From NCBI GenBank assembly GCA_000091205.1, contig AP006501.2: a stretch of 64,000 bases of DNA; one strand, written 5' to 3'. Source of the DNA: Cyanidioschyzon merolae. Taxonomy: Eukaryota. Positions 1,684 to 43,344 of this stretch are shown one piece after another. The notes under the pieces were generated by a model that ran no database searches, was not told the origin of the DNA, and worked only from the letters and a program-made list of their open reading frames with translations. Both the position numbers and the translations under genes were made by a program. Within the stretch, counting starts at the first letter, position 1. Every line of letters starts with the position of its first letter.

Positions 1684-2551
1684 TATCCACGTGTAGCTTT
1701 ACGTGCTATTTCGATACGCTTGACACGAGTTTCAGATAAGATATACGCACAACAGAGCGCGTGTGTTGGAGAATCCACGCGCAGTGGCGAGCGCACGTTT
1801 CACGTTCCCGGGAGCGTTCATGAATCGCTACGCACACAGGCGCCTCCCAGTGTTTTCGAACCTGTCGCTTGTTCGCGCTTTCTGTTCATCCAGGCACAGT
1901 TTGAGCCTGAGAGACTGCCCCACAAAGTTGGATTGCATCAGCTTATTAGGTCCCGTGTCTTCAACATCACATATCGTCTGATATTGATACAGTCTCGGTT
2001 GGTGAACTCCTCGCGTTTGCAGCCTCTGGTTGAACCTAACTTTGCAGGGACTCCTCGAAGTTGTGGCCTCGATGCCGTCCAAGTCTCGTTTGCATCCCGT
2101 TGGGCAAACGCTTTTCATCGTCTGTCTCCCCTCTTCTCCGTCTTGTTCTTCCTATTCGTTAATCGCTCTTCTTTATTCGATGGTCGGTGAGAGAGGATTT
2201 TTTCGGTTTTTTTCCAGCAGCCGGCGATGGCATCCCTGCGGGATCTCCGACTACCACGTCCATGCTTCTCCCCTGGATTCTTTTTCTTCAAATGAGCGCA
2301 CTTCAAATGCATCAGCTACAAACCGCGAACATGCATTCGATGACAAGCACCTGGGTGTGAAACACAACTGAGATGAAAGACCACAAGGAGTATGCTCCTC
2401 ATTTGGCAATAGAGAGCTTGCCTTGGAACGCGAGTTGTCCCCGCAACGCCGTTCGTATTACCTGCCGTGTTGGGCTTACTGTTGAACGAGGCTTTTGTGC
2501 ATTCGTTGCGCAACTCGCGAGTGAGCAAACGCTGTCTAGCTGCCCGCTGCT

Positions 2552-4243
2552 ATGACGCTGGTTTGGAGCTCGCTCACTCGTGCGATCAAGCAAGACCTAT
2601 CTCGGGGGAGAGTCTTGTGCACCAGGTGCGTCTCTGTAGCGGCGGACGAACGCAGCTGTGGAGAGAGCCTCGCGTGCTCTCCGAGGCGGGGTACACTCTG
2701 GACTATGGACAGGTGCCTCCGACGTTGCCGGGAGCGCAATCTTTTGGCCTCTTTTCGTGGGACGAGTGCCGCTGCATTGAAACATTCGCTCTCTCAGCTG
2801 TGGAAAGCGTGCGCACACCAGCGTTACAGCGGTACGCGTGTCGTCAAACGGAGCTGCAGCTGCGGTGTGGACTACCCGGACGAGCGGCCTACCACTGACG
2901 TGCAGCACGCGAGCACCACAGAAACTTTGCAGTTGGCGGAGACAACAAGGCATGGGACTGGCGCATGTGCGGCTCTGGTGCACCAGCGAATACCGCCATA
3001 CGAAGCTAGTTATTCGGCATTGGCGGCCAGGTATGCCGAGCGGGCTCCTACTCTAGGCAGCGACTTGACGCCGGCAACTCGAGTGCTCCAGTTTCGATCA
3101 GCGCGTAAGCATGACCGGCGGTTAGAAACGCGACGTTACCTGGAGCACTTTACCAGGGGCTTTGCAGATGCACGCGTTTCTCCTTCGGTTCTCGTTTTAG
3201 CAGAGCATGCCCGCGGGAATGTCGCGCCTGCAACCTGGGCTGCATTACGAGCAGCCCAGCAGGTATGCGGGGGCACGTTGTCGAGCAACGGCAACGACGC
3301 CAAACAAACTGGACATATTGAGGTTCTCGTCTTCGATCGCGTGGATTCAGATATGGGGGCGGTTCTAAAACAGCTCGCTCAGGTTGACGGTGTATCGCGA
3401 CTCGTTCTCGTTTGTGATGGGCACTGCAGGTATCCCGTTGCCGAGATGCTGGCCCCTGTCATTGCCCGCTGGAGTGCAGAGCAAGGCTATTCGCACGTGT
3501 TCACTGGCGGGAGTACTTTTGGCAAAAATATTCTACCACGCGCAGCAGGTATCCTGGGCATCCAGCCGCTCTCAGATATCATGCAGGTGTGTTCGCCATG
3601 GGAATTCGTGCGTCCGTTGTATGCGGGGAGCATTCTGGCCCGCGTACGCTTGGTACCTCCCTCTGAACCGTCATCTAAGACTGGATGGCGTTGCTGGGCG
3701 ACTATTCGGGGTACCGCTTTCGAGGCCGCGCAACTTCGCCACGATGACGCCTGTCCAACTGAACTCGACATCACAGACAAGGCAAGGCAGTATCTCCAAG
3801 ACGCCGCACCGCCAGCCGTGGAGTGGTTGCAGCAGACGGGCGCTAACGCCGAAAGGCCGCGCTTGGAAAGCGCCCACATCGTTGTTACCGGTGGCCGTGG
3901 CCTCCGCGACGCCGAGCACTTTCAAGCCTTTGTGATGGAGCTTGCAGACCGTCTGGGGGCAGCCGTTGGCGCCACGCGGGCGGCTGTTGATGCCGGCATG
4001 TGTGCCAATGAACTTCAGGTCGGGCAGACAGGCAAGGTTGTTGCACCAGAGCTCTACATCGCCGTGGGCGTGAGTGGTGCCGTCCAGCACCTTGCGGGCA
4101 TGAAAGACAGCAAGGTCATCATCGCCATCAATAATGACCCAGAGGCCCCGATTTTCCAAGCAGCCGACTACGGCCTCGTCGGTGACCTGTTTGAGATCAT
4201 GCCCGCTCTTTTAGAGAAATTATCTAACTCGCATAAAAAATAG
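2552..4243 (+). CDS. ETFA: Electron transfer flavoprotein alpha subunit with a long N-terminal extension
   Basis: The C-terminal FAD domain matches ETF-alpha closely ('VVTGGRGL', '[63 protein letters not shown]'). The N-terminal ETF domain begins near '[12 protein letters not shown]' at about aa 213. The only in-frame ATGs upstream of the domain are at 2552 and 2705. Confidence 0.85.
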
Positions 4244-6981: not shown

Positions 6982-8463
6982 TCAGCACACACGAGATGAT
7001 GGTGCACTGCTTTTGGAAGGGCAAAGAACACAAGCAATGCGCTCGAATGCAACTTGTAGCGTTTGCGTATCCTCAACTGCCGAGAAGCAACATCTATACC
7101 ACCCGGGTTCAGGAGCATGGCAAACACGACCCGGATAGATCAACACTCGCGCTTCTCGAAAGAGTCGCTCAGCAAGTTCCAACTCCGCTTCCCAGGTCGC
7201 CTCGCGAAGAAATCTCTGCAAGCCAATCCATACGAAGAATCCAGCCTGGCTGGGATAGATGCGCACCTGCTCTGCCCCAAGACTGGTTTGAATCGCTTGA
7301 ACAGCCACCTGATACGCTTCCTCTAGTCGTCGTTGGTTTGCGACGAAAAACTTGTGCAACCATTGCTCGTCACTCAGCATTCGGCAAAGCACTGCCTGCG
7401 TATCCCGACTGGGCGACGAAAACAAACACGGTGCTCGAATCGCCTGCAACAGAGCCTGGTTCTCCGTAAAGAGAACCCCACATCGCATGCCACTCATACA
7501 GAGGTCCTTACTAAACGTCCATACGACATGCACATCGTTGCCGAGACCCTGGACGGCCAAAACGTCCGCTACGGAACGAAAACGCCCCGCATGGCTCTGG
7601 AAGACCGAGAGCGCGTACGCCTCGTCGCTCACCAGGTGCATGCCATGGGATCGACACCATTGAATGGAAAGCTCTAGTTCTTCTGTCGATAGAATATTGC
7701 CCGTTGGATTCCCGGGACTGTGCAGGAGCAACACTCGCGGTCGTTGCCCGCTCGCTCTACAGGTCCGGTCCGCAGTTTCAAGCGCATCCCTTGTCAGACG
7801 GTGGTGGTTATGGAGCGCTGTTTGTACAGGTACGGGTATGCACTTTGCACGGCAGCTCAGGTCAAAGTCAAATCCCGGATAATACGGTGCCGGAATCAAC
7901 ACGGCATCACCATCGTCACACAGGGCACTGAATACCAGGTCAAGTACAGCGCTTGCACCAACGGCACACAGGTAGTTATCGGGGTTGGCTGCACTTGCTG
8001 GGCCGCCTTTCGAAGCTGCAAATATATGCTCTCGAAAGAGTTGGCTAAGTGCCTTGCGAAAGCGTAACTCGCCGAACATGTAGTCGTACTGAAGGCACTC
8101 GTTGCGCGGCAATACGTCGCTGCGTTCCCGCTGAAACTGGGCTAAGACGGGTCCCGCACTGAGCGCGTTCTCGGCCACCAGCAGTGAGATATAACCATTA
8201 GGTTTTAATTGTGGATCGTATGCGTCCTGTTTCGCTGTAAAGGACCACTCAATCTGGCGTGGCGGTGCACGACTCGCAAGCGCCCTCCCCCGGTCTGAAA
8301 GCGTCTCTGCTGCGCTTTTCAGCACGCTACTCGTCTCTGGTTGTTGCATGCAGACACGTATACTTCGCTGTTGCTGCTGGGACGTAGCTGAACAGAGCAG
8401 CCGATCCCGACACTGAGCGCGAACGAACAAAGCTTCTCGGTAAACACCAGACTGGAGGAACAT
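6982..8463 (-). CDS. Class I/II PLP-dependent aminotransferase, ACC-synthase-like
   Basis: ATG-initiated 493-aa ORF. The PLP-lysine motif 'TFSKDLCMSGMRCGVL' matches ACC-synthase-type 'SLSKDxGxPGFRxG'. Other family blocks are 'NGYISLLVAENALS' and 'LLHSPGNPTGN'. Confidence 0.8.
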   Translation of the reverse strand: MFLQSGVYREALFVRAQCRDRLLCSATSQQQQRSIRVCMQQPETSSVLKSAAETLSDRGRALASRAPPRQIEWSFTAKQDAYDPQLKPNGYISLLVAENALSAGPVLAQFQRERSDVLPRNECLQYDYMFGELRFRKALSQLFREHIFAASKGGPASAANPDNYLCAVGASAVLDLVFSALCDDGDAVLIPAPYYPGFDFDLSCRAKCIPVPVQTALHNHHRLTRDALETADRTCRASGQRPRVLLLHSPGNPTGNILSTEELELSIQWCRSHGMHLVSDEAYALSVFQSHAGRFRSVADVLAVQGLGNDVHVVWTFSKDLCMSGMRCGVLFTENQALLQAIRAPCLFSSPSRDTQAVLCRMLSDEQWLHKFFVANQRRLEEAYQVAVQAIQTSLGAEQVRIYPSQAGFFVWIGLQRFLREATWEAELELAERLFREARVLIYPGRVCHAPEPGWYRCCFSAVEDTQTLQVAFERIACVLCPSKSSAPSSRVC

Positions 8464-8562
8464 CCAGACTCGGCATCTCGAAGCGGTGGATCACTGCGGC
8501 CGACACTACGGCATTCTCCCGAGACGCTTCCATTGCGGTATCGAGTACGCTGATGAAGCGGG

Positions 8563-9256
8563 GAACTTGGCGACTGAGACAAAGTCTTCAACGTAGAAGC
8601 CTCATGGTGCAAGGATCGGGTGTATAAAGGTACGAGATACTGCGAACTTGGCGACTGAGGCACAGTCTTCAACGTAGAAGCCTCATGGTGCAAGGATCGG
8701 GTGTATAGAGGTACGAGATACTGCGAACTTGGCGACTGAGGCACAGTCTTCAACGTAGAAGCCTCATGGTGCAAGGGTCGGGTGTATAGAGGTACGAGAT
8801 ACTGCGAACTTGGCGACTGAGGCACAGTCTTCAACGAAGAAGCCTCATGGTGCAAGGATCGGGTGTATAAAGGTACGAGATACTGCGAACTTGGCGACTG
8901 AGGCACAGTCTTCAACGAAGAAGCCTCATGGTGCAAGGATCGGGTGTATAAAGGTACGAGATACTGCGAACTTGGTGACTGAGACACAGTCTTCAACGAA
9001 GAAGCCTCATGGTGCAAGGATCGGGTGTATAAAGGTACGAGATACTGCGAACTTGGCGACTGAGACAAAGTCTTCAACGTAGAAGCCTCATGGTGCAAGG
9101 ATCGGGTGTATAGAGGTACGAGATACTGCGAACTTGGCGACTGAGGCACAGTCTTCAACGAAGAAGCCTCATGGTGCAAGGATCGGGTGTATAAAGGTAC
9201 GAGATACTGCGAACTTGGCGACTGAGACAAAGTCTTCAACGTAGAAGCCTCATGGT
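8563..9256. repeat. 81-bp minisatellite, 8 full units plus a 40-bp partial unit
   Basis: Units start at 8569, 8650, 8731, 8812, 8893, 8974, 9055, 9136 and 9217. The consensus is 'GGCGACTGAG(G/A)CA(C/A)AGTCTTCAACG(T/A)AGAAGCCTCATGGTGCAAGG(A/G)TCGGGTGTATA(A/G)AGGTACGAGATACTGCGAACTT'. The array lies between the 5' end of the aminotransferase gene and the 3' end of the permease gene. Confidence 0.95.
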
Positions 9257-9602: not shown

Positions 9603-10430
9603 TCAACTAGCACCAGATGTGTACGTTTCGCGCACAAGCCTCCAGGAGTTATGATCGAAAAACTTGCCGTACGTCAACAAAGCCAGTAAGGATGCAGAAA
9701 GCGTACTACCTGCTGTGATCATATAATACACAACGATTTGATAACGCGCTGCTGTGTCCGTGGAACCGTTACCGACAATCTGCCCCGTCATCATGCCTGG
9801 TAAAGAGACAAGGCCTACCGTCAGCATCGAGTTCACGACCGGAATCAGTGCCGAGCGCAAGGAGGCTCGAAGTGCCGGTGCGATCGCTTGTTTTGGACTG
9901 GCACCTATGCTGAGGAGTTCCTCGATCTCTTTCTCGTGCGAGGATACCTCGGACTGGAGTCGTTCGCCCAACAACGCTACTGTGTTCATGGCGTTCCCGA
10001 GAATCATACCGGAGAGCGGGATAAAGTAACGCGGCATCCAGAAAGGTTTCACTCCGATGACGGTCCAAGTTGTTTGCACGATCACGAAACCTGCACCACT
10101 GAGAAGCGAGACTAGCACGGCGACGAACATACCCGGTATTGGTCGGTGCATGCGCTGTGAAGCTGTCCAGGCAGCAACCAAAGTCATGATGCTTACTGCC
10201 AAGAACACAAGCAATGGTAGGTTTGCAGCGAAAATCCAGCGCAAGACGAGCCCTACGAGCAACAACTGGACTGCGGCACGAAGGGACGCCCAAACCATAT
10301 CCAGTTCGATGCCAATCTCAAACAGCCATATCGCCATAACTGACAGTAGCATGAAACCGTAAGCGACAGCAAGTTGACCAAGACTGACAGGCAGGGCGCC
10401 GGCCGTGTCGGCACTGCTCGTGGACTCCAT
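9603..10430 (-). CDS. fetB: FetB/YbbM (UPF0014; plant ALS3/STAR2-like) ABC-type permease
   Basis: The track start at 10454 is GTG and the first ATG is at 10430. The protein is polytopic, with the family block 'YFIPLSGMILGNAMNTVAL' and overall YbbM-like topology. Confidence 0.75.
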   Translation of the reverse strand: MESTSSADTAGALPVSLGQLAVAYGFMLLSVMAIWLFEIGIELDMVWASLRAAVQLLLVGLVLRWIFAANLPLLVFLAVSIMTLVAAWTASQRMHRPIPGMFVAVLVSLLSGAGFVIVQTTWTVIGVKPFWMPRYFIPLSGMILGNAMNTVALLGERLQSEVSSHEKEIEELLSIGASPKQAIAPALRASLRSALIPVVNSMLTVGLVSLPGMMTGQIVGNGSTDTAARYQIVVYYMITAGSTLSASLLALLTYGKFFDHNSWRLVRETYTSGAS

Positions 10431-10706
10431 GAATGGGCGACGGATGCAAAACACGAACGCTTCCGACCCCAGGTCTGAACAACGAAGTGAATGTCCAGGT
10501 CAGAGCGCGTTGACTGCCGCACGCCGTCGAACAAGGCAAGAATCCTCGACCAGGTACAAGTGCAGTCGTGCAGGCTCTCGTACGGCTTCTCAAGGCCCAG
10601 CAGCAGGAGCGCGCTGAGCTCTGGTGCTGTGCTCGTTCGTGCCGTGCGGCCTGCCTTCTCACCAAGACACCTTCGACTGTGAATGCTCGCTTCCCGATCT
10701 GCGGCT

Positions 10707-11996
10707 CTATTTTGTTGCTCCCAATGACTCCCCAGTCAAAAGCCGATGAATGCTGGCCGCTGTATCGGCGGTACCGAGCAGCGCACGCGCGTCACCGCGT
10801 AAGAACAGCTCCCCGTCCCGCACAAGAATGAGCTGGCCGTCGGTAACCTCCGAGAGTCTGTGCGTCACTATGAGTATTGTGGCCCGGATGCGTTCTTTCC
10901 AGTCCGATAAACGTTGCAATACTTGAGCCGCTGTTGCTGCGTCCAGACTTGAAGTGACCTCGTCCAGCAGTAGGATTCGTGGTTGCTGCAAAAGCACTCG
11001 CGTGAGGCCGAGGCGAGCTCGCTCACCCCCTGACAAGGCGGCTAGCGGTCGATCCAGAATCGTTCGCGATAAGCCAGCTATATGCAGTGCTTCCGGTAGT
11101 CGCTGTTCAAGCTCTGTCCGCGATACAACTCCCAAACGAACGAGCGTCTCGAGCGCCGACTTTGCTGGTTCCTCCGTGTTCGCGCTCGAGCGTTGTCGGC
11201 GTTTGCCGAGGACCAGCTCCCAAAGCGTTTCTCGCGTTACAAGTCGGCGGAGTGCCTCCAGCAAACCAGGCCTCCTATGTGCCAAACACGGCAATGCAGG
11301 TTGCTGGCTCAGAAAACCTACTAGTTTGCCCCGTAACTCGCCTGGAGGGTACGCTGGCACTGGTGTGCCCCACAGCCGGACTTGACCACCTGAAGGCTCC
11401 TCTAAGCGGTTCACCAGTCGAAGAAGTCGAGACTTGCCAGCTCCTGACGGGCCGATGATAAACACCGTCTCTCCGTCGCGTACTTCGAAACAGATATTCC
11501 GAAGTATGGGTCGAGTCGTCCCCGCCGCCTGGGTGCTCGCAGACAACGTCACTCCTTCGAAAGCGATTGCCACCTCCCGTGTTCCACTTGGATAGTTCTC
11601 GACGAATGCGCCAGAGTCTCGCGTCACTGGGCGAATAGGATCGATGTTCTCGTGGTGCCTCTCTGTCGCGGAGCCGTACTCGAGGTCCGTTGCCAGCGAA
11701 GCGGCTGCCGTCGAAAGCACAGCGTCCGCGTCTTCCCTGGTTGACTCCTGATTGCTCACCGAAAGAGTATCTGTGCCAGCTTTTGGACTTAAGCGGTTGC
11801 TGAATGACATGAAAGGGGGAAAATATCCCCCGGGAACAGATATACCTGAAACGGCTGCTGCAACTCCAGCGCAGAAGTCAAGCGCTGCAGAGACGGCCCT
11901 GGTGGCAGGCCTCGACGCCTGAAGCGTTTGCTCAGGTTTCGCTCTGAGCGTATTCGGAACGGAACCTGAGACGTTTCCCTGGGTGCTGATCACCAT
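10707..11996 (-). CDS. fetA: ABC transporter ATP-binding protein (FetA/YbbL, STAR1-like) with a ~170-aa N-terminal extension
   Basis: The track start at 12050 is GTG and the first ATG is at 11996. It has Walker A 'GPSGAGKS', signature 'LSGGERARLGL', Walker B 'ILLLDEVTSSLD' and an H-loop 'VTHRL'. Confidence 0.85.
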   Translation of the reverse strand: MVISTQGNVSGSVPNTLRAKPEQTLQASRPATRAVSAALDFCAGVAAAVSGISVPGGYFPPFMSFSNRLSPKAGTDTLSVSNQESTREDADAVLSTAAASLATDLEYGSATERHHENIDPIRPVTRDSGAFVENYPSGTREVAIAFEGVTLSASTQAAGTTRPILRNICFEVRDGETVFIIGPSGAGKSRLLRLVNRLEEPSGGQVRLWGTPVPAYPPGELRGKLVGFLSQQPALPCLAHRRPGLLEALRRLVTRETLWELVLGKRRQRSSANTEEPAKSALETLVRLGVVSRTELEQRLPEALHIAGLSRTILDRPLAALSGGERARLGLTRVLLQQPRILLLDEVTSSLDAATAAQVLQRLSDWKERIRATILIVTHRLSEVTDGQLILVRDGELFLRGDARALLGTADTAASIHRLLTGESLGATK

Positions 11997-12503
11997 CACA
12001 CTTCTTGAAGCATCTGGTTGGAATCGTTGATTGCATAGGATCAGAAACACACTGGAAGGCGCCTGGCTCGCGTTCGACGACCCCTAGCGCAGGGTAGAAG
12101 CTGCGATTTCACGCCGCTTCGTGCTTGCTCGTTCAAGGGCGTTTCTCGTATACCGTGTTCAAGTCCATAACTAAACCATCTGGTGACTTTGGACAACGGA
12201 GAACGCTGAGAGCGCTGGGCACTACCCAAAACGCCTCAGAGTCTGGAGCTGGCGCTCTCCGAACCAACCGCAGCAGCGACCTGGTGGTAGCCTGGAACGT
12301 GTCGGTTCACTGGAGGCTCTCCTGACGAGGCGTCCAGCACTGCCCGTTCTCTGTCGTTCTGTTTCTTTCTGTAGGCCTGTAGGAGTACGCAGGAACATCT
12401 GCGTTGTCTCACTTTGGATTTCCGGTTTCCTCGAGAGGAGACGTTGGCAGCCGCTGGACGAAACTTGTAAGCCGACCCGCAGCAGTGGGTTACGCTTCCG
12501 AGC

Positions 12504-15500
12504 ATGCCCTCCAGGGGTGCGCGTTCGAAGAAGCCCGCAAAGAAGACCGCCTCAGCTGAGGAGGCAGCACAACGACTGCCAGAGCATCTCGCGGCAGGCA
12601 AGTTCACCTCACTGGCCGACATCACAAGTATCGTGCTGGGTGCTCGCTCGTGGCAGTCCGAGGCAGAGGCCGAGACGAGGCCCCTCACGACTACCGCGTC
12701 TACTGCAGAGCTTCAAAATTGGGATGAACACGCTGCGCTGGTTGCCCAACGACTCTTAAAACGCGATGAAAGTACAAAACTACGAGCGTTGCAGGAGCTC
12801 AGCACCCTCTTGCAGGCACTGGAACAAGCTTCCTCGGAAAGAATCGCAGACCAAGCAGCCTACGGGGCCCAGTACGGCGCTTTTCTCGGAAACTTTGCCA
12901 CTGCATTCGTGAAACTGACACTGGATCCGAGTGTACGCGTTCGAGCAGAAGCCGTCGCGCTGGCGGGGCTTGTCGTTCGTCTTTACGGAAAACGGTCAAT
13001 AGCGCTCCTGCCGGGGATGCTTCCGGCATGGGTTGGGTTGCTGGGCGATCCCTCGGCACAGGTCGCTGAAGCTGCAGCTCGTAGTTTCCAGGACGCGTTT
13101 CCCACTGAGGTGAAACGTCGACGAGCGCTGTTGTTGGTACCGCATGCACTGATCCACCACGCAACCGCGCAGGTTCAGAGCAGTCTAGCGGGAAACGTGC
13201 CAGAGACGTTGCGTCAATCCGCAGACAAGGCCGAAATGCCCCTTCTCCACGCGCTGGTGTGCGTGGCGTCCACCGCGGAGGCTTTGGCAACGACACTAGC
13301 GACAAAGACAACCTTGTCGCCAGCAGACGACTCGGAACTGGTTGCATTTCTGGTCCACTGGCTCCAGCACTGGGTATCGGAGGAAGGCGTGCAGACGCTT
13401 GCGGTACCGCTTTTCCGCCGCTACCGGCAATCGCTCCGCGTCCATGAGGCCTTCTGGCGACTAGCCATTATTTCAGTGGACCTTTTCGGAGAGCTTCGGC
13501 AGACCAGAGACGAGCACCAGGGGCATAGCTTGATCGCTGCATTGGCAAACGCTTGTCCAGACTGGGAAAGCAAGGCGTCGGACGGTTTTTCCTATCTCGT
13601 TTCACGACTCGCTTGGGATGAGCTGCACGCTTCCTGCCAAGAACAGGTCTGGATCCTCCTCCATCGCTATGTTGTGCGGATTGAGCCTTCCAGCAGCAGC
13701 CTTGCACGATCGATCTCTGCAAAGACGCTCACAAGCTGGCTTCTCGGCGAGTCGATAGCAGGGGGCCGGCGTCAGGCCTCTGCAGCCGAACGTATCCAGT
13801 CTGGTCGGGTTTTCCGGGGGCTGCTACCCTTCTTGCAAGCGCTACGAATCAAGTGGCTGACCAGCGACGCTGTGCGTTCCGATCCAGTCGAGAGCGCTTC
13901 CCGTCATCATTGGCTCGAGTCGTTCGAGGGTATGCTGCTCGATGAGCTCACCACTGCCTTGCTCTGGCGAGCGCCTAAAACAAAGTTTCCTCCAGCGCTT
14001 GTGGGGAGCGCTTACCTGGACTGGTGGCAAGCAGCGCTGGTCGCTTTCCTGGAGAGTGCGCTCTGGGTCCAGCAGCTATCCTCGAGACGAGAGCGCAGCG
14101 ATGATAGGACTGCTCTGCGCGCTCGATGCCGCGCTGCACTACAGCGGTACCTTCTTGCAGCGGAGGCGTTTCAGCGTGCACCTGAAGCGTCGCAATCCGT
14201 GGTGCAATTCGGTGGTAGACCAGCCGATGCATCATTGCTTCATGAACGCTTTTTCGATGTGCTTTTCTATGCGAGCGTGGACGCTTGTCGAAGCGACTTG
14301 GATGCAACGCGCTCCAACTGGCAAATCGTTGGTGAGGAGCTCGCCGCGGGGCTCGTCGTCATCGTCGTCATCGAACGAGCACCTGCCTGGTATGCGAAGG
14401 CGGTGGTCGCTGCTTGCGAACGTGCCGTGCAGGGAACCTCGTTCGCGACGCTCGAGTCAGACCAGCAGCCCCGGTGGTCACTTCTAGGCCTCGATCCTGG
14501 CGTCATTCGTACCTGGAGTGTAGAAATTATGGGAGGTGCGTTCTGCTGGGCACTGAATCGTTTCCGTCGACGAAAGATTGGCAACGGAAACGCACAACAT
14601 GACGATAATCACCAGCAGGTACATGGTACTCCAGCGGAAGCAGAGGTTGCAACCACGCTGCTCCTGTTGGCATGGAGTCAGCGCGCCCCGGCTTCGATGC
14701 TGGAACGTGCTTTGCAGTATCCAGATCCGATTCAGGGCCGCCATCGACTCAACGACTTTTTCCACGACGCTGTGTCGCTGCTGGAGCATCCATCAGCGGA
14801 AAACGAGCATGACGATGACGATGACGACAACGAGGAGGAGGCGGTGGCGGTGGCAGCGCTCCCTGCTGCTTACAGTCACCAGCTCGTAGCGGTGCTGGGT
14901 GCACTGGCTGCATGCAGTCACTCCTCTGAGGCGCTGAGCGGTCCATCGAGCGTCTTGAACGCGCGTTTAGAGGAGTGTCCTGGCGCGGGTCGCTGGCTCA
15001 TCGAACTTGCTCAAGCAGCACGTATCCGAGCAGCTTCAATAGAGCAAGGTGTTCCAGCTGGTCTCTGGACAGCGACGGTGTTTCCCCGTCACCTGGCTGA
15101 CCAAGTGGAGCACCTGCAGTGCTACTGCGACCAACTGGACCCCGCCCGCTACTCCTATTACCGCCGTTCGGAGACAGACGCTTGGCCTTCCGTTGGGCTC
15201 CTGCTGGAATACGCCGCCTGGCCCGAGGCCTGGCTCTGGTCAACGTCCACTGACTGGTCTACACTGAGGAGCAGCATGGATGCCAGCGTGTGTCGGGCGC
15301 TGCGTCTCGGACTCTGGGACTGGCCCCAACTGGCCTCCTTTCAGCAGGGTGTTCATTCAGCAGCTGCTCCATGGACCGCAGAAACACGAGCTTGGCTGTA
15401 CGTGAGAGCGCTCCTGGCATTAGAGCAGCACCAGAGCCAAGAAGCAAGCGACGGGCATGTGTTTGCGGACGTCCGACCGTCGGCAGCGCTGGAGCGTGAA

Positions 15501-21491: not shown

Positions 21492-21801
21492 GCCACCCAA
21501 ACCAGTCCAGAAACGCTTACTTTCCGTTCCGACTGTGCTGACTGAGGCGTGCGCTGACGGGCTCGTGAGCACGAGCCCTCGCCCTGCGCGAGCGTGCTTC
21601 TACGGTGGCAGCAACGCGCCTCTTTCCGGGTGTTTCGTGACCTTCCAGTGAGCTAGTCTGCAGGTGCTGACTATTGACCACACTGGACGCCTTGTCCAGC
21701 TGCTCTGGCACCGGTGTTTCTCGTAAGCGGCCAGAAGATATCACCGGCAGCGGGAGCGGGCCTCCGCTGCTGGGCGCCTCCTCTGGCGACGTTGGCTGGC
21801 G

Positions 21802-21816
21802 CCCCCCCCCCCCCCC
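21802..21816. repeat. Homopolymer C15 (G15 on the minus strand)
   Basis: Read directly from 'ggcg ccccccccccccccc ggtg'. It lies inside the 21517..21963 minus-strand ORF, where it encodes GGGGG. Confidence 0.95.
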
Positions 21817-22744
21817 GGTGACGACTGGAGCGATCATTCGCTGCCGTCGCTGCTGCAGCTGATTTTTTACCTCTGACGAGGGGTTTCTATTGTATTTGGA
21901 ATCGCGTATTGCGGGATGGATATTACGATTTATGTAAGTGTTCATCAGGATGCTGAACTTCAAGTTCCATGACAGATACTTCCTTGCGGATGTACTGGTC
22001 GTTTCGGACGTTCTATCATGAGTCTAGTGCCTGCAGTACGCATACGCGTTAGCGCCGAGACCGCTGGAGCGGATATTTCATAGAGCCCGAACGGCTTTGC
22101 CATACGACTGGGGCGGGGGGTGTTGGCCCAAGGCATGATTCACTGGACATCGGGGTCGGAGCGTAGAATCATTCTGGGAGCGTGCAAGCTGTGCAGACGC
22201 ACTGCCTGTGGCAGCAGCGCGAAGCGATATACAAGGAGTACACTGCGACCAGGGCGATGCCCAGACGCTGGCTAACTGCTCGAAATCCCAGAATAAGCGG
22301 CGTTTCTGACGAGTTGCCCAGGTCTCAATAAAGCTCCTGCAACTGGGGGCCTGAAGCACAAGCCTGGCAGGCTCGTGCGACTCGCGGGACCTTACGTCCA
22401 GAAGGTAAACTCTCGACGATACGGAAACCTTTGCCCCCTTTTATCGTTTGTCGTAGAGGGGCAAAGAAAATGTTATCTCGCTACTAGTTTGTAACTAGTC
22501 TCTGTCCTTTTGGGTATATCATGCGCTCGATACGCGCACCTCCATATCTGGCAGTCACAAGACCTGACGTGTATCGCGCCGATGAAGGGAAACGCGATCC
22601 TGATCATGAGCGTGTAGCTCCAACGTACAGGACGCATTTGCGTTGAGGTCATGCGAAAGTATAGTATTTCATCCCAGATGAGTTTCGACCCTCAATGGAG
22701 TGTATTCAAGTGATTTTTCGCGGTTTATAGTAGTAGCGTTCAAA

Positions 22745-23138
22745 GAGCATTCTTTTCCAAAAACAAAAAATCCAAGGGACAGGTATCGACCTGGATGTTG
22801 GGAATCCTTAAGGGCCATCATCGTCGAATTCGACGAAGAATAACCGAAGAAGAAATCCTCTTTTCGTCGACTATCGAGCGAACATGAGCGAACGATGCGG
22901 ACGAAGAAGACCGAGAATGGATGTAGGCGAGAAAGTGTGTGCCCGACGAGACGATGACGAGACTGTAGTGGCACAGAGGGCGCGGGTTCTGGGAATCCTT
23001 GGAAAATTGCGTTCAGCCAGAGGCAATAAACGTATGGTGCTCGTGAACCGAGACTTTAACGCCGTCATCAATATCAGACGATGGGCGGTGCTGAAGACGA
23101 GACACGAGGAGCTTACGCGATCTAGCTTTGTGGAGTAG
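22745..23138 (+). pseudogene. TnpB/Fanzor-like nuclease relic R1 (C-terminal fragment)
   Basis: In one frame it reads 'LFVDYRANMSERCG' (22860-22901) and then 'LVNRDFNAVINIRRW' (NRD... at 23046-23081). This matches the TnpB pattern of TSKxC plus Zn ribbon followed by RuvC-III 'RDxNAAxNIRR'. An in-frame stop lies upstream at 22809-22811. It is collinear with R6 at a constant offset of 19,692. Confidence 0.5.
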
Positions 23139-24125
23139 CCTCTCATGGGCGATGTGTACAGGGAGAAGCTGAAACCGATAGCAGGTCGCCTGTGTAGATA
23201 GGCTGGGAGGCGTCTGCACGTGGGTGTCAGTTTACGATCTCGAGGCGACGCCTCCAGTGGTGCGGAAAGGCCGTTCTGTCTGCGCTAATGCGAGACGCGT
23301 GGTGGTTACCTGGGCCCTGCTTTTCCCTTATAGGCTATTACGTGAGCCCTTGGGCACCTTCAGCACAGAAACGTTTCCAGTCTGCAACGTGGCGGGATAA
23401 GCGAGTCGAGCTCGGAGCGCTCCGTGTACAATCACGCTGTCTCCTTTCGCAAGTTACGATGCGTACCTGTTTCGCGGCTGGATTTTTGGCACCAAAAGCG
23501 CTGTAGGTACCGGGTTCAGGTACAGTTCCATCTCGCCAGATGCTGTTGGTGTCGAAGGATCGGCTTCAGGAGGAGGTAAGCGTCCGGCATTGCGTACCAA
23601 GAGGTCTGCGACGAGGCGTTCATCGCGCAGTTCGTCGCATCAGCAGGCGGGCACTGCTTGTAATCGACTGCCTGAGCGCTTCATTGAGACGATTCATAAA
23701 AGCCATCGTCGCCTTCAGATATCACTCTGAGAACTGTTTGGACGCTGCAGAACGATTCTCGGGATGCGCGAAACATGCCCAGAGTCGGCACCTGGCATGG
23801 GGTAGGGTCCTGGTCTGTTGTGGTGTAGGATCCTTAAATCTAACCAGGTTTCTGGCGATGCGCATCCGCTTCTGATGACCACGAAAGAGGCCTCGTTCGC
23901 TTCACTAGCGCATGTGTGTGTTCGGCAAGTCCCAGTCAAAATGCCCAACAGGTATAGAGGCTTGCTCATTCCAAAGGAACAGCGGTTATCGAGTCTACAG
24001 TGGGCGCTCGCGCCACCGCGGGCTCATTCTCACACGCTCACCGCAGAGGTTCGTTTCCTAACGAGCAACTCGCGCGTCTGCAGGCGCATTCTCCAACGAG
24101 ATGCCGACCCTGAAAACGTATATTT

Positions 24126-24282
24126 CGCTGTATTCCAAGTCTGGAATCATCCGAGGCACTAGATGCGAAGGCAGCCGGTTTCGGGAAGTGCTCGTCCCAG
24201 TCTGATACCGGAAATCCCGCTGTATTCCAGGTCTGGAATCATCCGAGGCACTAGATGCGAAGGCATCCGGTTTCGGGAAGTG
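24126..24282. repeat. Two direct copies of a 65-bp unit, 92 bp apart
   Basis: 'CGCTGTATTCCA(A/G)GTCTGGAATCATCCGAGGCACTAGATGCGAAGGCA(G/T)CCGGTTTCGGGAAGTG' occurs at 24126-24190 and 24218-24282, upstream of the YggS-like gene. Confidence 0.85.
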
Positions 24283-24562
24283 GTAGTGCCTCCATCCGAT
24301 CGTATATCTCGTTGTACCCCAGGTCTGTAATCATCCAGATCACGACATACATAGGCATTATGTGTCGGGTACTCGACATTCCGCCTTGCTCGTGCTTCGC
24401 GCTGGCATACGATACAAATGAAGCACAGCCGCAGTTGCGCAGTCGCGGTTGCCAGGCCCGCGTTGCGTACGGCTGCGATGCCCGCCGGAGGACACAGCCT
24501 TGTGCTACGCTGGGCTCGTGCGGCGTTGCGCCCGTATACTGTTGGGCTCCGTTGGAGACGGT

Positions 24563-30514: not shown

Positions 30515-31845
30515 CTCGCTCTGTTCCTGCTTTTCGGGGGCTTCCGAAGTTGTTTTAGATGCACATCATCGATTGAGGACCTGCAGCAAAGAGTGCTGAC
30601 AGGTTCATACGTAGTTCAAAGACGCTCAGCGGGTCTTTTCGGAGTGGCTGTTTCGATGCGGTGCAGCTGGGCGGATTCGCTCCGTCTCGGGGATCGAGAT
30701 GATTCGCGACGCTCGCGAACCAGGAATCGTGAAATCACGGATAGCATGATCCAGTTCGTACGGCCAAGGCTCTACGTTTCACTTTTCCTCAGGTCTAGCA
30801 CGCTTCGAGATTAAGATCTTGATGTTTCATGGCAAAGATTTGGCGCAGGTTTTCGCGCTGCTGGATGCATAAGGAGAAATGCTCGACATCTTCCATGGAT
30901 GACTTGTTCGCGAGTGCGTACCAAAAGTTGGCTGTATTTGTCGCATTCAATCATGGATTATTTTCGAAATATGAACCCTCAGTTTGTGGCCGTTGGCGAA
31001 ACGGATTCCACGGTAGCACGATATCTCTCACAGGATCTGCCACCAGACGCTCCCATCTATCGTGCTTTTCATAGCTAGGTATCTTGGACTGGGGTTTGAG
31101 GTATCGCATCGACCTCATTCAATGGAGAATGCGTCGTCGCTTTGCACGAAGGAGGCCTGAACGGATCGAAACTTTTCGACTTGTTCTCCAGGCGGGATTT
31201 TCATTCCGATGCTTGTTTCATGACGGACGACATCGCTTGCCGCAGATTCTCCTATCGAATGGAAGAGCGTGCGCCTGCTTGTGCATCTGCCAGAGCAGTC
31301 GTCAATGGGATCGCCCAGGTAATGCCAGTGCTCGTCTGGTGCGGTACTGGGCGCGGAAACGAATTAGGGTATCGGCAGGAGCGCTCTGTAACCGTCCAGG
31401 GCATCTGGTGAGCTATGGAGTGCGCCTCGACGCAATACGGGGCGGTCCACAGGGTAGCAGGTGTGATGTACGGATCGAAACGCCTGACAACCGCCATGCA
31501 TGACCGTTGGGAAAGGAGCACTCGGGCCATAAACAGAGAGAATGACAATGACGAGCGAGGCGTAGACTGCAACCACCGCCTGTGCATGACGTGCGTAGAC
31601 GACAACCCGAAGCAGTGCCATCGAGACCCAAACGCTGACATTCACATTACAAGGGTGCTGACAACGGAGCTGCCGGGAAACGAGACACCGGGCATAAATG
31701 GAACCGCAAGTCAGAGAGAGGAATACGAAGCAATCGCTTAAAGAAGCCCGTGAACACTGACGATAATCACCCTGAGAACAGACACAAACTTTACTGCCAA
31801 CGACCGCGTTGGACGACTTGCTTCCTTCTTGACTGATATTCATGC
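30515..31845 (+). pseudogene. TnpB/Fanzor-like nuclease relic R2 (near full length, multiple stops and frameshifts)
   Basis: The ordered motifs are 'ALLDA*GEMLD' (Asp codon 30864-30866), 'AMECASTQYG' (from 31415) and 'CNHRLCMTCVDDNPKQCHRDPNADIHITRVL' (HRD... at 31619-31654). It is collinear with R8 at offsets of 17,836-17,889. Confidence 0.5.
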
Positions 31846-31860
31846 ACCATCCAAATGATC

Positions 31861-32952
31861 CTACACCCGAAGGAGGAAATCGTGTTGGCAATATCTGAAA
31901 TCCCTGTTTTGCTGGAACGATTCGAAACCTGTAGGAAATCGGGCCGCGAACACTGCCTGTCCGCACTTGTTTTTCTTTTTTCGTATGACGCAGCGTCGCG
32001 CATCTTGTCGCGGGTCACCGAATACGCGATCGCGATCAGCATCAAAACGAGCATCTATGATACTGCACCGGATTTTCAAATAACACGGCTCACATTGCAG
32101 TCTTCGCTTGGGCATAATGGTTCCCTGGAACGACCATCCGCGTGCCGAGCGTACCATGGGTGCCCAGAGCGGCGCTTAGAATGCTGGTTCGTATGCTGCA
32201 CCAAGACGAAACGACTTTGGCGTACTCTTGAGGTCCTCGGCTCGAGGGCGAACCCCCGGGTACCTCGTCGTCAGGCAACGGAGCCATGACCACTCGATTT
32301 GCGACGCGGTCGTAGCTGCTCTGACACGCTGACGCATCGAACGGAGCGTATGGTAGCGATCCCAGTGCCAATGGAACCGAAGCTGCTCGAGTGCCGCGCG
32401 ACTACGCGAGCTTTCATGGTGGACCACGGGCTGCTGGTGCGCGCTGTTGTTTTCGGGCCCGAAGAGAATTCATTGATTGGTGCATTGCGTTCCTTTTTAA
32501 CAACGAGTCCGTTCCTCTATATTTCCAGCGAGAATTGGCGCTGCGAGATGGTTTCTTTTGAACAGCTCTCTTGAATCAGGCCGAGCTCGGTTGGCCCAAT
32601 CGCTCCCCGGAAAATGAAGGACGCTTCGATGCGGCCCCCGGTTCTGGTGCTGCGGTGAAATCGTCTGCGGCTGCAGAACCGGCCGTAGACACCATTGTGA
32701 AGCCCAGTAACCAGCGCTGGCGTCGTTCAAAACTCAATGGACATAAAGATACAGGGTCGTGTCACCGGTCTGATGGTAGTGCTTTCCAAAATGCGTCGCG
32801 AGGTCGAGACTCACCTGTAGCAACTCCTTGGCATCACGAGAAGCATGGATCTCGCGGAGCGTCTGGCCTCGGGTGACGGCTGTAACGGACGCACATCCAT
32901 CGCAACTGGTGCAGATGGATCCAGCGGACGCGTATCCTTGGCCTGAGGCCAT
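31861..32952 (-). pseudogene. TnpB/Fanzor-like nuclease relic R3, tail-to-tail with R2
   Basis: The minus-sense fragments appear in this order. 'SICTSCDGCASVTAV' (Asp codon at 32899-32901) comes first. 'VSLDLATHFG' follows about 32 aa later. Then come 'TIMPKRRLQCEPC' and 'KCGQAVF...FQQNRDFRYCQHDF' (31876-31908). The fragments lie in three different frames. Confidence 0.35.
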
Positions 32953-34419: not shown

Positions 34420-35830
34420 TGCGTTCTGATGCGTTTCGCTGGACTCCGCACCTAAAAGGCAGAATATGAGTTTGGTGGCCACCAGCGAGCGTTGCGACTC
34501 GGTTGGAGACCCGCGAGCGGCCAGGGCTACACCAGGCGTGAGCGGTCACCCGTCATCCTCGAAAGGAACATCCAGAAGCTGCAGTCCCTCGAAGAAGCAG
34601 CTGCCTTCCCTATGTTAACACAGGCACTGTAAGCGTGCCAGCGTTTCAGTGTTCCTGTCCCTACAGTAGGACCAGTGTGATTTCCCGTGTGCATGCAGCG
34701 TTCCGATACGGCATGAAGGCGGTGCTAGCCAGAACGCACCGACGCGCATGCTGGCGAGCCAGTGGCTAGCTCGAGCATGCTCCGGGGATTCCAGCACCTC
34801 CCACAAGCACTTGCGGGTCCATGCTAGGCCCTAGTCCCGGTACAGAGTCCAACTAGCGCTGAAGACTCGAATTTTTTTCTTCTTTGGTGTTCCCACTGTT
34901 TTTCTTGGACCATACATTGGAGTCGTCGTGAGCCTTCCCTGTTCATGAGAGAACGATTGGAGGCTATCCTCGGCGAGGAGCCGCTTCGTTCAAACCTGCA
35001 TCGATCTTGCCCAGGTACTCTTGTAATGCTTTGGAGCAGATATAGTGATTCGGTCGAAGCAGATGCGCGTGCTGGGGTGGTATAGTCCAAATGCACACTC
35101 GGCACTTGGTCGCCATCGCATCTATCTAAGGTCCATTTAGTTCACGTCCAAGCGCTAGGGAACCGGGCGTTGGGCTCTGTACCGAGCATCCTGCCATGAT
35201 TCGTATCGTCCTGCTGGCAGCGGTCTGTATACACGAAGCGATTGCGGGGTTCAGGGCGGACCACGAGGCGCCCCAGGTCGCTGCCTGTACGTTACACGTC
35301 CCGAATGCCGTGGTACAGCTGCATGCGGACACCGCGAGGTCCGGCAGGATGTACGATACACGTCCTGAATACCCTGGTACAGCTGAATACGGACATCGCG
35401 GGGTCAGACAGCAGCATGCGCGCGAGCGCTATGCACCTCTTCATCTTGATGATCATCTCGCCCAGATGCTCGATAGCAACCGGCGTCGATACTAGGCAAA
35501 CTCTCCGGTTACAGGCGGCTTTCGGAATTTCCTTCCCATAGGCAAGCGCCACGAGCGGTCGCGGAAACGCTGTGAATGGCCGTGAGTGACCATGACCCGG
35601 AACTTGGATGCATCGATATCCATCTCTCGACGATCTGCCTAGGCACTGACTTGTTGCATTCTTTCAGCGAATGCTTCCGGGCACGGCGCCAGCAATACGA
35701 CAGCATCAATGAGTACGAGCCTCGCGATGCAGTCTTCATAACGATGCCCCTCTTGATCCCTGTATTATGGATCTCCGAGGTCCATCCACTGAAGCTCCGT
35801 TCCGCATTGCCAGCACCGATCTCGATGACT
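34420..35830 (-). pseudogene. TnpB/Fanzor-like nuclease relic R4
   Basis: The minus-sense motifs are 'VIEIGAGNAE' (35800-35829), 'VAIEHL' (35463-35480, RuvC-II-like) and 'SHWSYCRDRNTETLARL' (CRD... at 34630-34665). It is collinear with R5 at offsets of about 5,064-5,073 from at least 34420 to 34960. Confidence 0.5.
35287..35405. repeat. Tandem duplication of a 64-bp unit (two copies)
   Basis: 'GTACG(T/A)TACACGTCC(C/T)GAAT(G/A)CC(G/C)TGGTACAGCTG(C/A)AT(G/A)CGGACA(C/T)CGCG(A/G)GGTC' occurs at 35287-35341 and 35351-35405, inside R4. Confidence 0.85.
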
Positions 35831-39104: not shown

Positions 39105-39479
39105 GAGCTTGACAAGCTCGTGTTCCCAGCGTCCCAGGGTATGCTGGCTGCGGGATCACGGTGAGCGCAGCGCGCCGCGCAGCGTCGGTGCGGGCGCTGC
39201 ATGTAGACAGAACGGCTTTTCTAGACTGCAGAGGGCGTTGGCTCGAGGGGTGCTTCACCCGACGTAGAGTCGGAATTCATCATCATGATACGATCAGAAA
39301 GTCTGCGGATGCAGGCTTGTCTTCGCTGCACGGCACGCTGGAGAAACTTGGTTGTTAGGATGAATTCTGGGAGCCGCCTCTCTCCTTCGTGCTCCTGCAA
39401 GGAATGCGTTGTTGTTGGTTGGCAATGCGGGTTTGTGGTTGACACCCACCCACAGTGGGTAGGCGCAGAAAGCGCACTG

Positions 39480-40494
39480 TGCCCGTGTACGCATCCGCTT
39501 CGCTGGACCTGCTGCCTAGAAGGTAGCATGTGAGTTTGTTCGCCACTCATGAGCGCTGAGACTCGGTTAGCGGACCATCAGTTGCCAGTGCTACACTCAA
39601 AGTGATTGTCCGGCCTTCGCCTATCACGGTGATGCCCAGCTGCTGGTGTCCTTCAAGCAGCTCGCTGCGCTCCTGCTTCCAGCGCGGGCACTGTAAGCCT
39701 AACTATGTCAGCGTGTCGGGGATCTCGTTTCCACAGCAGGGACAGTGTGATTCCCAGAGTGATTCCAGTGTTCCTATGCGGCTTAGAGCCGGTGCTGCTA
39801 GTCAGAAGCCACCAACGCGGATTTTCGCGAGCCACTGAGTACCTCGAGCAAGTCCCGGGAATTCCAGCGCCTCCCACCAGTACTTGCATGTGTATGCGAG
39901 GTTGTAGTTCCGGTATAGAGTCAAGCCAGCGTCTCGACGCTTGCGCTTATCCGCGTCTGCTGTAGACCACGGATGCGATTTCTGGACACAAAATTATGGC
40001 TTGGAGGCAAGTGCTCTAGCTTTGGACATGGCTATGTACGCACAGACGCCGCCCCTTGTCATGAATTGCAGGATTCTTTGTGTTCCGGGTAAGCGCGATC
40101 CTCACCATAACGTACCGGTCACTCCACTCCCGGGTTCAGCGGTATCTGCAATGACGCGGATACCGGGACAGCACGCTGCACAACAATGCGACGCATCGCT
40201 GTTGGTATCTGTCGACAGCCAGTGCTGCGCATGCACTACTTGTATGAGCGCTCGCAAAATGAAAGCCACCCCCTGCGTCAGCCGGATACGGCCACGGGAT
40301 GTACTGTTTAGGAAAAGAGGTCGTTCGTATCCGGTTATGGTTCTCCATCCGATCTGGGTCGCGATCGCAGCTTCCAGAATTCCGCGCCCTACAAAGCTAT
40401 GATGTCCTGGAATCGCTGGAATGAATTTCGTCAATTGGCTCCACAGCACAAAACCAATCGTTTTTTTCAGCATCCCGCAGCACGATCGAACCAT
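39480..40494 (-). pseudogene. TnpB/Fanzor-like nuclease relic R5
   Basis: The minus sense reads 'SHCPCCGN', then a 1-nt frameshift, then 'WKRDPRHADIVRL' (39695-39733). This compares with the TnpB pattern 'CPxCG...RDxNAAxNIxR'. An upstream 'STDTNSDASHCCAACCPG' lies at about 40185. It is collinear with R4. Confidence 0.5.
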
Positions 40495-41739: not shown

Positions 41740-42840
41740 CATATGGAAAGTAAAACCAACGATCGTAGACACAGCAAGTGTCTCTGTTTCTCAACAGCTT
41801 GTTCACGTGGTACTCAAAACACTGGGGTACAGTCACAACAAAGTCCGCGTTCACGCACGACTCTCTTCCACAGAAATCGCAGCGACAGCGTTCCTGAAAC
41901 GTCGCGATCGCTATGATACAGAGAAACGTCGGTTATTTTTTTCAGTGTATGAGACTTGCTTCAGAGGATACGGTCGGAACGTCCATGGGTATTTGCAGAG
42001 AGGGAGCCCGTTGTGTCTATGACCGAACTCGAAGAGATACAGGTTATCATCTTCTATTCTAGCAGCAGTGGATCCATTTGGTGGCCTCAGTTTCGCTTGT
42101 AAAGAAGTCTCGTAGAACAGCAGCAATGCTGTCGACTCGTTAAAGACTTTTCCCCGGACCTCTGGCGACGTTCTTCTACTGTACAACGTAGAATTTCAGC
42201 ATTCACTTTGCGTTTGGGCTTTTCCGGATTCTATCGGGGTGCAGCTGCTTTTCACTCTTCCGTCCTCTCCGAGATTCAACGCTATAAAGAGGAGTGGTTT
42301 CTATGGTGAAACGCGTTGATCGGTCCATTGTACGAATCGCCGAGGCGTTCAGGACACGGTGACGCCAGGGCACATTTTGTCTGTCTGCCGCGAGTGCCTC
42401 TCCCGCTGCGAAATTCCTCACCCGAGTGCTTAAAGAGGTGCATTCATTTTCAAAAATAAAAATCCAAGAGAAGGCTATACACATGCAAACTGGGTATTCA
42501 GGAGTGCCATCATCACTGGATTTGACGAAGAAAACAGTAAACAAGGCCAATCCCAGAGGAACAGGAGAAGACCAAGAAGCACAAGCCGGAGGCCTGACGT
42601 CAATGGCCGCAAGAAGGACCACAGTACAACGAGATCGTAGTGAAAACCTGTCTTTTCGGGTATTTCGAGGATCCGTGCAAACAAAAGTTGCGAAATGGCC
42701 ATCAGAAACCGTGTCGAGTCGTGCGCCATGAGTTTTATGGACGCCTCTTCAGGCCGAATGCATTTGGTTAAGGTCATGCAACGCGACGTGACGGGCATCA
42801 AAATGGGCGAGGTTCCAGTGGAGTCTCTCGACCAGATCTT
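41740..42840 (+). pseudogene. TnpB/Fanzor-like nuclease relic R6 (heavily decayed)
   Basis: It has an N-terminal 'IVDTASVSVS' (41762-41791). Its C-terminal part is collinear with R1, with anchors 42440/22747, 42506/22814 and 42524/22832. The RuvC-III position has decayed to 'NRVESCAMSFMDASSG' (42707-42754). Confidence 0.35.
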
Positions 42841-43344
42841 CATTCGCCACTTGATGTTTCGCACAGGGCAAACGTCGAGGAGAAATGAACGAGTGCATGC
42901 CATTCACGAAAATGACGCCGAATATCGCTTCGACGGTGCTCGACACAAGCTTGACTCGTGTATTTAAGAATACGGGGCGATCAAGTACCTCATGAACCCG
43001 AAGAACCATTTGACTATGACCCTTGAACGCATCATCATACGCTTCATGTTTGCACTCTACCCGGGCCACTCTCGCATCGGGACATGGGCCATCATCATCG
43101 GCATTACGAACGATCGCCAGCATGAACGGGAGATCGAATTCATCGACAAGAAGACACCGCGCAGGAGAAAGAATGAGGACTCTGTGATCTGTGCCGCTAT
43201 TCAAGAGCACCGTGCGGTCTTGGGGCTGGTCAATCCAGCAGAATAGGTATCCGATATGAAAAAGAAAGATGTTATCCTCTCATCCTGCGTTATTTCGTGT
43301 TTCTGAGTCGAGAACTCGAATGCAAAGCCGAAATATAGCAGAGT

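Follow-up and report, generated by a model that had tools for sequence, protein, structure and literature searches.

The window, a 64,000-nucleotide stretch of Cyanidioschyzon merolae DNA (contig AP006501.2), is compact, nearly intronless eukaryotic DNA with ∼56% G+C. Its genes include those for a 2209-amino acid Listerin-type E3 ligase, an SPB4-type DEAD-box helicase, ETF-alpha, and an M48 peptidase. The window also holds three remnants of one transposon family, termed R0, R1, and R6 (Table 1). R1 is a 1.4-kb intergenic block that can now be labeled as a relic of a published Fanzor1 family.

The C. merolae Fanzor1 family CMe-1A was described with a 3169-bp consensus that encodes a 734-amino acid protein (Bao and Jurka 2013, Mob DNA 4:12; PMC3627910). 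About 150 copies exist that are ∼80% identical to the consensus; TIRs are absent, and no TSDs were found (PMC3627910). A separate 635-bp non-autonomous repeat of C. merolae with ∼70 copies, TE-N2_CMe, is identical to bp 1-635 of CMe-1A (PMC3627910). We compared the CMe-1A consensus, as given in Additional file 2 of PMC3627910, with the window by blastn, and we supplemented this comparison with local alignments and profile searches.

Table 1. Coordinates of R1, its segments, and the two other family remnants in the window (consensus numbering refers to CMe-1A)
Feature	Position	Strand	Evidence or setting
R1 element, whole	∼21874-23291	+	CMe-1A similarity
5' segment, equivalent of TE-N2_CMe (consensus 4 to ∼636)	21874-22510	+	blastn, local alignment
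CMe-1A-specific upstream noncoding region (consensus ∼637-905)	22511-22784	+	one contiguous alignment
Decayed first ∼50 codons, basic N terminus (consensus 906-1070)	22785-22945	+	six-copy alignment, consensus vs CMe-1A
Internal-deletion breakpoint zone (consensus ∼1046-1070 joined to ∼2809-2833)	22946-22970	+	overlapping alignments
C-terminal coding remnant (consensus ∼2834-3088)	22971-23221	+	blastn, hmmsearch
Inverted TE-N2 piece (consensus 273-204)	23224-23291	-	local alignment to reverse complement
R0, second and more decayed deletion-derivative copy	1836-2381	-	between M48 peptidase and ETF-alpha genes
R6, N-terminal ORF half with frameshifts (consensus ∼860-2162)	42440-43724	+	blastn, profile

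Two blocks of R1 align with the consensus by blastn. Consensus 37-896 corresponds to 21908-22770 (79% over 873 nt, E 0), and consensus 2840-3088 corresponds to 22976-23221 (71%, E 8e-31). Local alignment extends the left block to consensus 4 at position 21874. The part of R1 that corresponds to TE-N2_CMe (21874-22510, with consensus 510-636 at 22383-22510) differs from that repeat in forming one uninterrupted stretch with more 5' sequence of the CMe-1A type. A 70-nt piece of TE-N2 recurs in inverted orientation as the 3' end of the R1 lineage; in R1, this piece (consensus 210-255 at 23284-23239, 83% by blastn) takes the place of the last 81 nt of the CMe-1A consensus.

The original prediction, made from the letters of the window alone, had described R1 as truncated on its 5' side. 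R1 is not 5'-truncated, because the complete 5' noncoding region of the element (consensus 4-905, 21874-22784) and the ORF start, which lies at consensus 906 in CMe-1A, directly adjoin upstream. R1 thus shares the 5' region, the ORF start, and the ORF end with CMe-1A, and TIRs are evident in neither. It differs from CMe-1A in that it lacks consensus ∼1066-2825, carries an insertion after the KKRK codons, and has another 3' end. R1 and R6 match the consensus at 71-82%, which equals the divergence reported for the ∼150 published copies (PMC3627910). R1 is very probably a pseudogenized, non-autonomous, internally deleted copy of the known Fanzor1 transposon family CMe-1. As a decayed member of a family known since 2013, it is ordinary genomic debris and matters little for biology at large.

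CMe-1 as a Fanzor1 family

A protein search with the CMe-1A consensus protein returned 43 homologues, all of them metagenomic. A phmmer search of Pfam and the PDB with one intact CMe-1 homologue gave no match. A profile built from 10 homologues has SpuFz1 (8GKH) as its sole match in the PDB (E 4e-6, profile positions 283-653). In the profile alignment, the CMe-1 motifs GADPGN, VDEFRTS, and NRDF line up with Asp-383 (D383), Glu-541 (E541), and Asp-606 (D606) of SpuFz1, respectively. The numbering was calculated by subtracting a 394-residue MBP offset from the 8GKH chain and is consistent for E541 and D606. All three residues coordinate the metal in SpuFz1 (Saito et al. 2023, Nature 620:660; PMC10432273). 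Judged by its sequences, CMe-1 is a Fanzor1 family, because its profile matches SpuFz1 alone in the PDB and the catalytic motifs align. The original proposal of a catalytic Glu in the VDE motif of this lineage is right in general, given its alignment with E541.

SpuFz1 and the ISDra2 TnpB possess a CCCC zinc finger in the NUC domain (PMC10432273). In an alignment of 10 homologues, no CxxC...CxxC zinc ribbon was found in intact CMe-1 members, and the region reads SYTHHELGCTLQRVEMEKCQRS. Distant CMe-1 relatives have zero cysteines in the aligned zinc-finger region. The CCCC finger is missing family-wide, including in relatives of 31-43% identity from other metagenomes (P0042-P0045). Several CMe-1 proteins feature a variable ∼20-amino acid tandem repeat (..KHEE.KEA.PA.QEV.DND.VV..) immediately before RuvC-I.

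The internal deletion of R1

The general identification of R1 as the relic of a TnpB-like (Fanzor1) gene is right, and profile searches of the region agree far beyond chance. In a six-frame hmmsearch of the window, the CMe-1 family profile matches R1 at 22962-23162 (E 3e-12), and the C-terminal CMe-1 profile scores 83 bits on R1 (E 8e-28). A single plus-strand frame reads ...NPLFVDYRANMSERCGRRRPRMDVGEKVCARRDDDETVVAQRARVLGILGKLRSARGNKRMVLVNRDFNAVINIRRWAVLKTRHEELTRSSFVE* and is open from 22812 to the TAG at 23136-23138, as originally described; its end lies 14 codons past ...WAVL, with the stop as the 15th, and not 19 codons past it. This frame contains the RuvC-III motif NRDFNAVINI (23046-23075), which reads NRDFNAAINI in the CMe-1 family. 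The predicted retention of the catalytic-type Asp holds: GAC at 23052-23054 encodes the RuvC-III Asp, which aligns with D606 of SpuFz1 via the family profile.

The other catalytic elements are absent from R1. The deletion covers consensus ∼1066-2825 (∼1.76 kb), a stretch that encoded the REC/WED part, the NUC region, and two catalytic residues, the RuvC-I Asp and the Glu of VDEFRTS. The RuvC-I Asp lies inside the deleted interval and has no profile match in R1, the catalytic Glu lies in that interval as well, and the zinc-finger region of NUC is deleted. R1 is unable to make a nuclease, because its start codon is lost, stops and frameshifts interrupt its frame, and the deletion took away two of the three catalytic residues.

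The left part of a majority consensus of six copies aligns to CMe-1A 851-1070, and its right part aligns to 2809-3088. The two alignments overlap by 25 nt, over which the parental sequences are similar. Because of this overlap, the breakpoint is placed at R1 22946-22970, and its exact position is ambiguous within these 25 nt. One metagenomic copy (C4) runs collinear back to consensus 2737 and is a relative without the deletion; its alignment with R1 begins at 22969.

The ∼95 nt before the breakpoint can be traced in the multi-copy consensus only. In pairwise DNA alignments with shuffled controls, R1 22850-22945 alone is too decayed to be placed, and in the per-copy scoring R1 alone reaches z 1.5. 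From the KKRK codons to the breakpoint, the family consensus has ...PSSEEEQVTKTKKKKKKGCRREKVFARRDDDETVV, which is collinear with CMe-1 PSPEEQEKTKKQKREARRQRLQERRQYDEMVV (RR-x5-RR-x2-DE-x-VV). The ancestral frame over 22854-22935 differs from the frame that the original prediction quoted, and R1 has a 2-nt deletion near 22935. After the KKRK codons, R1 also carries an insertion of 12-18 nt that is absent from CMe-1A; for the R1 lineage, a 12-nt insertion is seen there.

The same ∼95 nt are central to another explanation, according to which R1 is a 5'-truncated TnpB/Fanzor pseudogene whose C-terminal third keeps VDE in the form of VDY, half of a zinc ribbon, and RuvC-III. By eye, VDYRANMSERC(13)C fits over VDEFRTSYTHHELGC(9)C with the second Cys as residue 25 in both, and an alignment to the C-terminal profile can be extended as far back as 'DVGEKVCARRDDD' in R1. 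However, extending the C-terminal match over this NPLFVDY...C...C stretch adds 1.8 bits, whereas the N-terminal profile scores 7.7 bits there. The 120 nt upstream of the breakpoint display no DNA similarity to consensus 2701-2835 in any of the seven deletion-type copies (z -1.3 to 1.4), whereas the non-deleted C4 reaches z 17 as a positive control. Against truncation stand also the collinearity of the multi-copy consensus with CMe-1A 851-1070, the ancestral frame in 22854-22935, which is not the quoted one, the 5' end of the element upstream of the R1 remnant, and the lack of a Cys-pair ribbon in the CMe-1 family. We consider a truncated pseudogene of this kind highly unlikely. As a placement of 22850-22945, the VDE-NUC region was rejected by shuffled DNA alignment, three-copy nhmmer, protein profiles, the six-copy consensus, and per-copy z-scores.

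With an internal deletion as the preferred reading, several features of R1 described in the original prediction take on another meaning. The N-terminal two thirds had been reported as gone or unrecognizable, and most of the protein is indeed lost, but the first ∼50 and the last ∼90 codons remain and the middle is deleted. Of the Zn-ribbon/RuvC-III signature, the RuvC-III part is genuine and the zinc ribbon is not real. The VDY (22866-22874) that had been equated with the Glu position belongs to the basic N terminus and lies partly out of the ancestral frame. The Cys pair does not represent the rest of a zinc ribbon, because one Cys lies in an out-of-frame stretch, the other is a substitution found in R1 only, and the intact family has no Cys pairs. 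A false lead, the partly preserved Glu/zinc-ribbon signature, is thereby removed.

The in-frame stop codon (TAA at 22809-22811) is present as described, and no plus-strand ORF of ≥50 amino acids occurs between 22275 and 22884. The ungapped similarity of R1 to R6 at an offset of 19,692 is also confirmed: 63 of 100 positions are identical (22755-22854), compared with 24.5 +/- 4.4 identities (maximum 42) for the same 100-nt block at 2000 random offsets. Pairwise blastn of R1 and R6 gives 72% over 94 nt (E 9e-8). R1 and R6 had been called copies of one element; they do belong to one repeat family, but R6 is a different kind of remnant. Consensus 955-2162 corresponds to R6 42527-43724 (82% over 1209 nt by blastn), and the profile matches R6 over positions 3-377 (E 1e-55 and 1e-53); the remnant ends before RuvC-I.

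A better paralogue of R1 than R6, overlooked in the original prediction, is R0 on the minus strand. By blastn, R1 22664-23145 aligns with R0 2381-1908 (minus strand) at 65.6% over 492 nt (E 1.7e-23), and consensus 790-969 corresponds to R0 2381-2199 (minus strand, 69%). R0 is collinear with R1 across the breakpoint, and a profile match covers R0 1947-2096 (E 1.6e-4).

Distribution and decay of the short form

Further copies were collected by searching metagenomes with the R1-lineage-specific 23-base exact pattern ATCAATATCAGACGATNNNNNNTGNTGAAG. This pattern matched 29 metagenome contigs, which together with the window represent 8 loci (R1, R0, C2, C3, C4, C5, C6, and C8); the copy number obtained in this way is a lower bound, and the conservation of the 23-base block is by construction. 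R1, R0, C2, C3, C5, and C8 follow the consensus to position 969, continue with ∼118 nt, and then follow consensus 2833-3090. The alignment of C6 with R1 starts at 22929 and crosses the breakpoint. The deletion junction is therefore found at at least seven loci, namely R1, R0, and five metagenome-only loci (C2, C3, C5, C6, and C8). Flanks and neighboring genes differ among these deletion-type loci. The R1 insertion itself occurs with ∼99% identity in 9 metagenome contigs (JGI, ENA).

The recurrence of one breakpoint at six or more other unrelated loci indicates that the deletion arose once, and the architecture shared by at least seven loci indicates that the derivative spread after it had formed. 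A single internal deletion, probably between short similar sequences, created the short element, which would then have been copied to new sites, presumably in trans by the machinery of full-length CMe-1 elements. A nearly full-length CMe-1A copy (consensus 243-3169, 83%) is located at 10292-13226 on the minus strand of contig Ga0080006_1131325 (L023), 6.5 kb from the short copy C8, and is a candidate source of such trans-acting functions. The R1-type sub-lineage is not mentioned in the main text or the supplementary files of PMC3627910, and a search of these supplements yielded no other non-autonomous C. merolae elements.

Internally deleted, MITE-like derivatives of DNA transposons are known, as are ORF-less derivatives of bacterial IS200/IS605 elements (PATEs). 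The R1 lineage resembles both in that one deletion was followed by amplification of the short form, presumably relying on functions provided in trans. It differs from them in that the 3' end is common to its copies and the 5' end varies.

The remaining coding sequence of R1 is heavily decayed. The ancestral ATG now reads ATC (22785-22787), and the TAA at 22809-22811 replaces a sense codon as codon 9. The TAG at 23136-23138 is premature, as it replaces the Gln codon of FVGQPL; family homology continues in frame beyond it to about 23221, and a second TAG follows at 23199-23201. Compared with the 8-copy consensus, substitutions in R1-lineage copies amount to 26.5, 24.3, and 25.3% at the first, second, and third codon positions, respectively (chi-square p 0.58). 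Stops are found in six of the eight R1-lineage copies and frame-breaking indels in most, and R1-type copies have diverged by 20-37% from their consensus. The equal substitution rates at the three codon positions, together with the stops and frameshifts, indicate that R1-type copies are noncoding relics under neutral decay. R1 is very probably a fixed, neutrally decaying insertion in the C. merolae nuclear genome, and today it probably does no more than fill the 2.9-kb spacer that separates two genes. We considered whether the family consensus holds an intact in-frame fusion mini-ORF and rejected this idea: read from the native ATG, the consensus meets a stop after 34 codons, and its C-terminal part is in a different frame.

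The decay also bears on the idea that a small peptide was domesticated from the Fanzor C terminus, encoded by the 84-codon ORF at 22884-23138 (gene-called as the 73-amino acid hypothetical protein P0001). Gene callers predict the R1 ORF in several metagenomes, and a 92-amino acid counterpart (P0002) is predicted at another locus. However, the starts of P0001 and P0002 are non-homologous, the R1 ORF ends at a stop that is premature relative to the family, the paralogues contain stops and frameshifts, codon-position bias is absent, and Pfam and the PDB offer no similarity. A protein search with the R1 fragment retrieved only the same locus (P0001) and one ORF of 69% identity (P0002, at the C2 locus, L007), and neither the 108-amino acid R1 fragment nor P0002 gave anything meaningful in Pfam or the PDB. 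Domestication has next to no probability in our view, and neutral decay is the reading that we retain.

Element ends and comparison with ghost loci

R1 is the only deletion-type copy with a long 5' region. In consensus coordinates, the 5' starts are 4 for R1, ∼786 for C2, ∼790 for R0, ∼800 for C3, ∼815-868 for C8 and C5, and ∼1030 for C6, and the 3' end is common to all deletion-type copies. Such variation in 5' truncation is not usual among DNA transposons of the cut-and-paste type, and it may be relevant to how CMe-1 transposes.

At the 3' end, the inverted TE-N2 piece is longer in C2 (L016/L012), where it extends to position 65. In the eight-copy alignment, it is shortened in the other R1-lineage copies, leaving the hairpin-like motif GCGAAA-CG(T)-TTTCGC. 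A repeat search of 21700-23500 found no terminal inverted repeats, and the inverted TE-N2 fragment is the only IR candidate of the R1 type.

Two hairpins are located near the 3' end of the TE-N2 part of R1, at 22389-22406 and 22428-22464 (consensus ∼516-533 and ∼556-591). The stem of the second is formed by CTTTCCCCC/GGGGGAAAG in the consensus and by CTTTGCCCC/GGGGCAAAG in R1, which amounts to a compensatory C>G/G>C change. In the copies on L023 and L031, a stem is kept at the site of the second hairpin with different sequences. These hairpins may represent a structured RNA or a single-stranded DNA signal of TE-N2_CMe. Free-standing TE-N2 copies (consensus 5-635) occur on metagenome contigs L010, L027, and L031.

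The closest functional parallel of the R1-type copies, by analogy, would be the ghost Spu-1 loci of Spizellomyces punctatus, which number 134, lack the ORF, measure ∼550 nt, and provide active guide RNAs (PMC10432273). Like these, the R1 type comprises multi-copy Fanzor1 derivatives of ∼0.55-0.6 kb that lack the nuclease ORF and keep both element ends. CMe-1 has produced a ghost-like, ORF-less sub-lineage at at least seven loci, as reported for Spizellomyces. The ghost Spu-1 loci possess well-conserved 30-nt IRs and a demonstrated guide RNA, whereas the R1 type has no clear IRs. R1-type copies also differ in keeping ∼140 codons of ORF remnants, decayed by 20-37%.

Given this parallel, R1-type copies could be ghost-like carriers of a guide RNA (omega/reRNA) that were kept or spread for their right end and served the CMe-1 Fanzor1 in trans. 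ORF-less ghost loci with active guides exist for SpuFz1 (PMC10432273), and the guide RNAs of Fanzor and TnpB come from the right end, where they may overlap with the ORF at its 3' end. What the short copies retain is exactly the 3' ∼260 nt together with the terminal hairpin-like motif, and a predicted long-range helix GCCTCTCA/TGGGAGGC (23138-23146 with 23203-23211) is found in most copies with a few double changes. However, RNAalifold on 8 copies yields no net covariation support (term +1.81 kcal/mol), substitutions are frequent and evenly spread (20-37% divergence from the consensus), and an Rfam scan returned no match. In addition, the inverted TE-N2 piece takes the place of the final 81 nt of the CMe-1A consensus in this lineage, which is where a right-end RNA would end. 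We regard a guide-RNA role as unlikely. It is similarly improbable that R1-type elements are the red-algal counterpart of ghost Fanzor loci, a sub-lineage propagated for its right-end guide module, which would include the helix 23138-23146/23203-23211 and the terminal hairpin.

If the ghost reading were true, the CMe-1 Fanzor1 nuclease would in the past have been programmed in trans by R1-type loci, and it may still be so today. The common 3' end and the varying 5' ends would then suggest that this unclassified transposon is copied by an unusual, 3'-anchored mechanism. Should guide RNAs be made from R1-type copies, Cyanidioschyzon would be a convenient host to study the native role of Fanzor, owing to its genetic tractability and tiny genome. 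The reading that we prefer for R1 remains that of an internally deleted, neutrally decaying CMe-1 relic.

Several other repeats are present in the window. TE-N2-like fragments at 32183-32247 and 39187-39286 are 74-76% identical to consensus 192-294. Further dispersed repeats pair 30582-31274 with 48447-49153, 34429-34858 with 39493-39931, 48653-48730 with 52880-52802 (minus strand), and 51954-52030 with 53403-53327 (minus strand), and 31082-31228 recurs at 52569-52423 (minus strand) and 48965-49110. These other dispersed repeats are 63-78% identical among themselves, have no match to CMe-1A or the Fanzor profiles, and contain no long open frames. They probably represent further repeat families of old age and may correspond to R2-R5 of the original prediction. 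Just upstream of an Ala_racemase_N-type gene, a direct duplication with a 92-nt period (24110-24277 vs 24202-24369) is 78% identical. An 81-bp tandem unit is present in ∼8.5 copies of ∼96-97% identity at 8563-9256, inside the minus-strand ORF 8319-9239.
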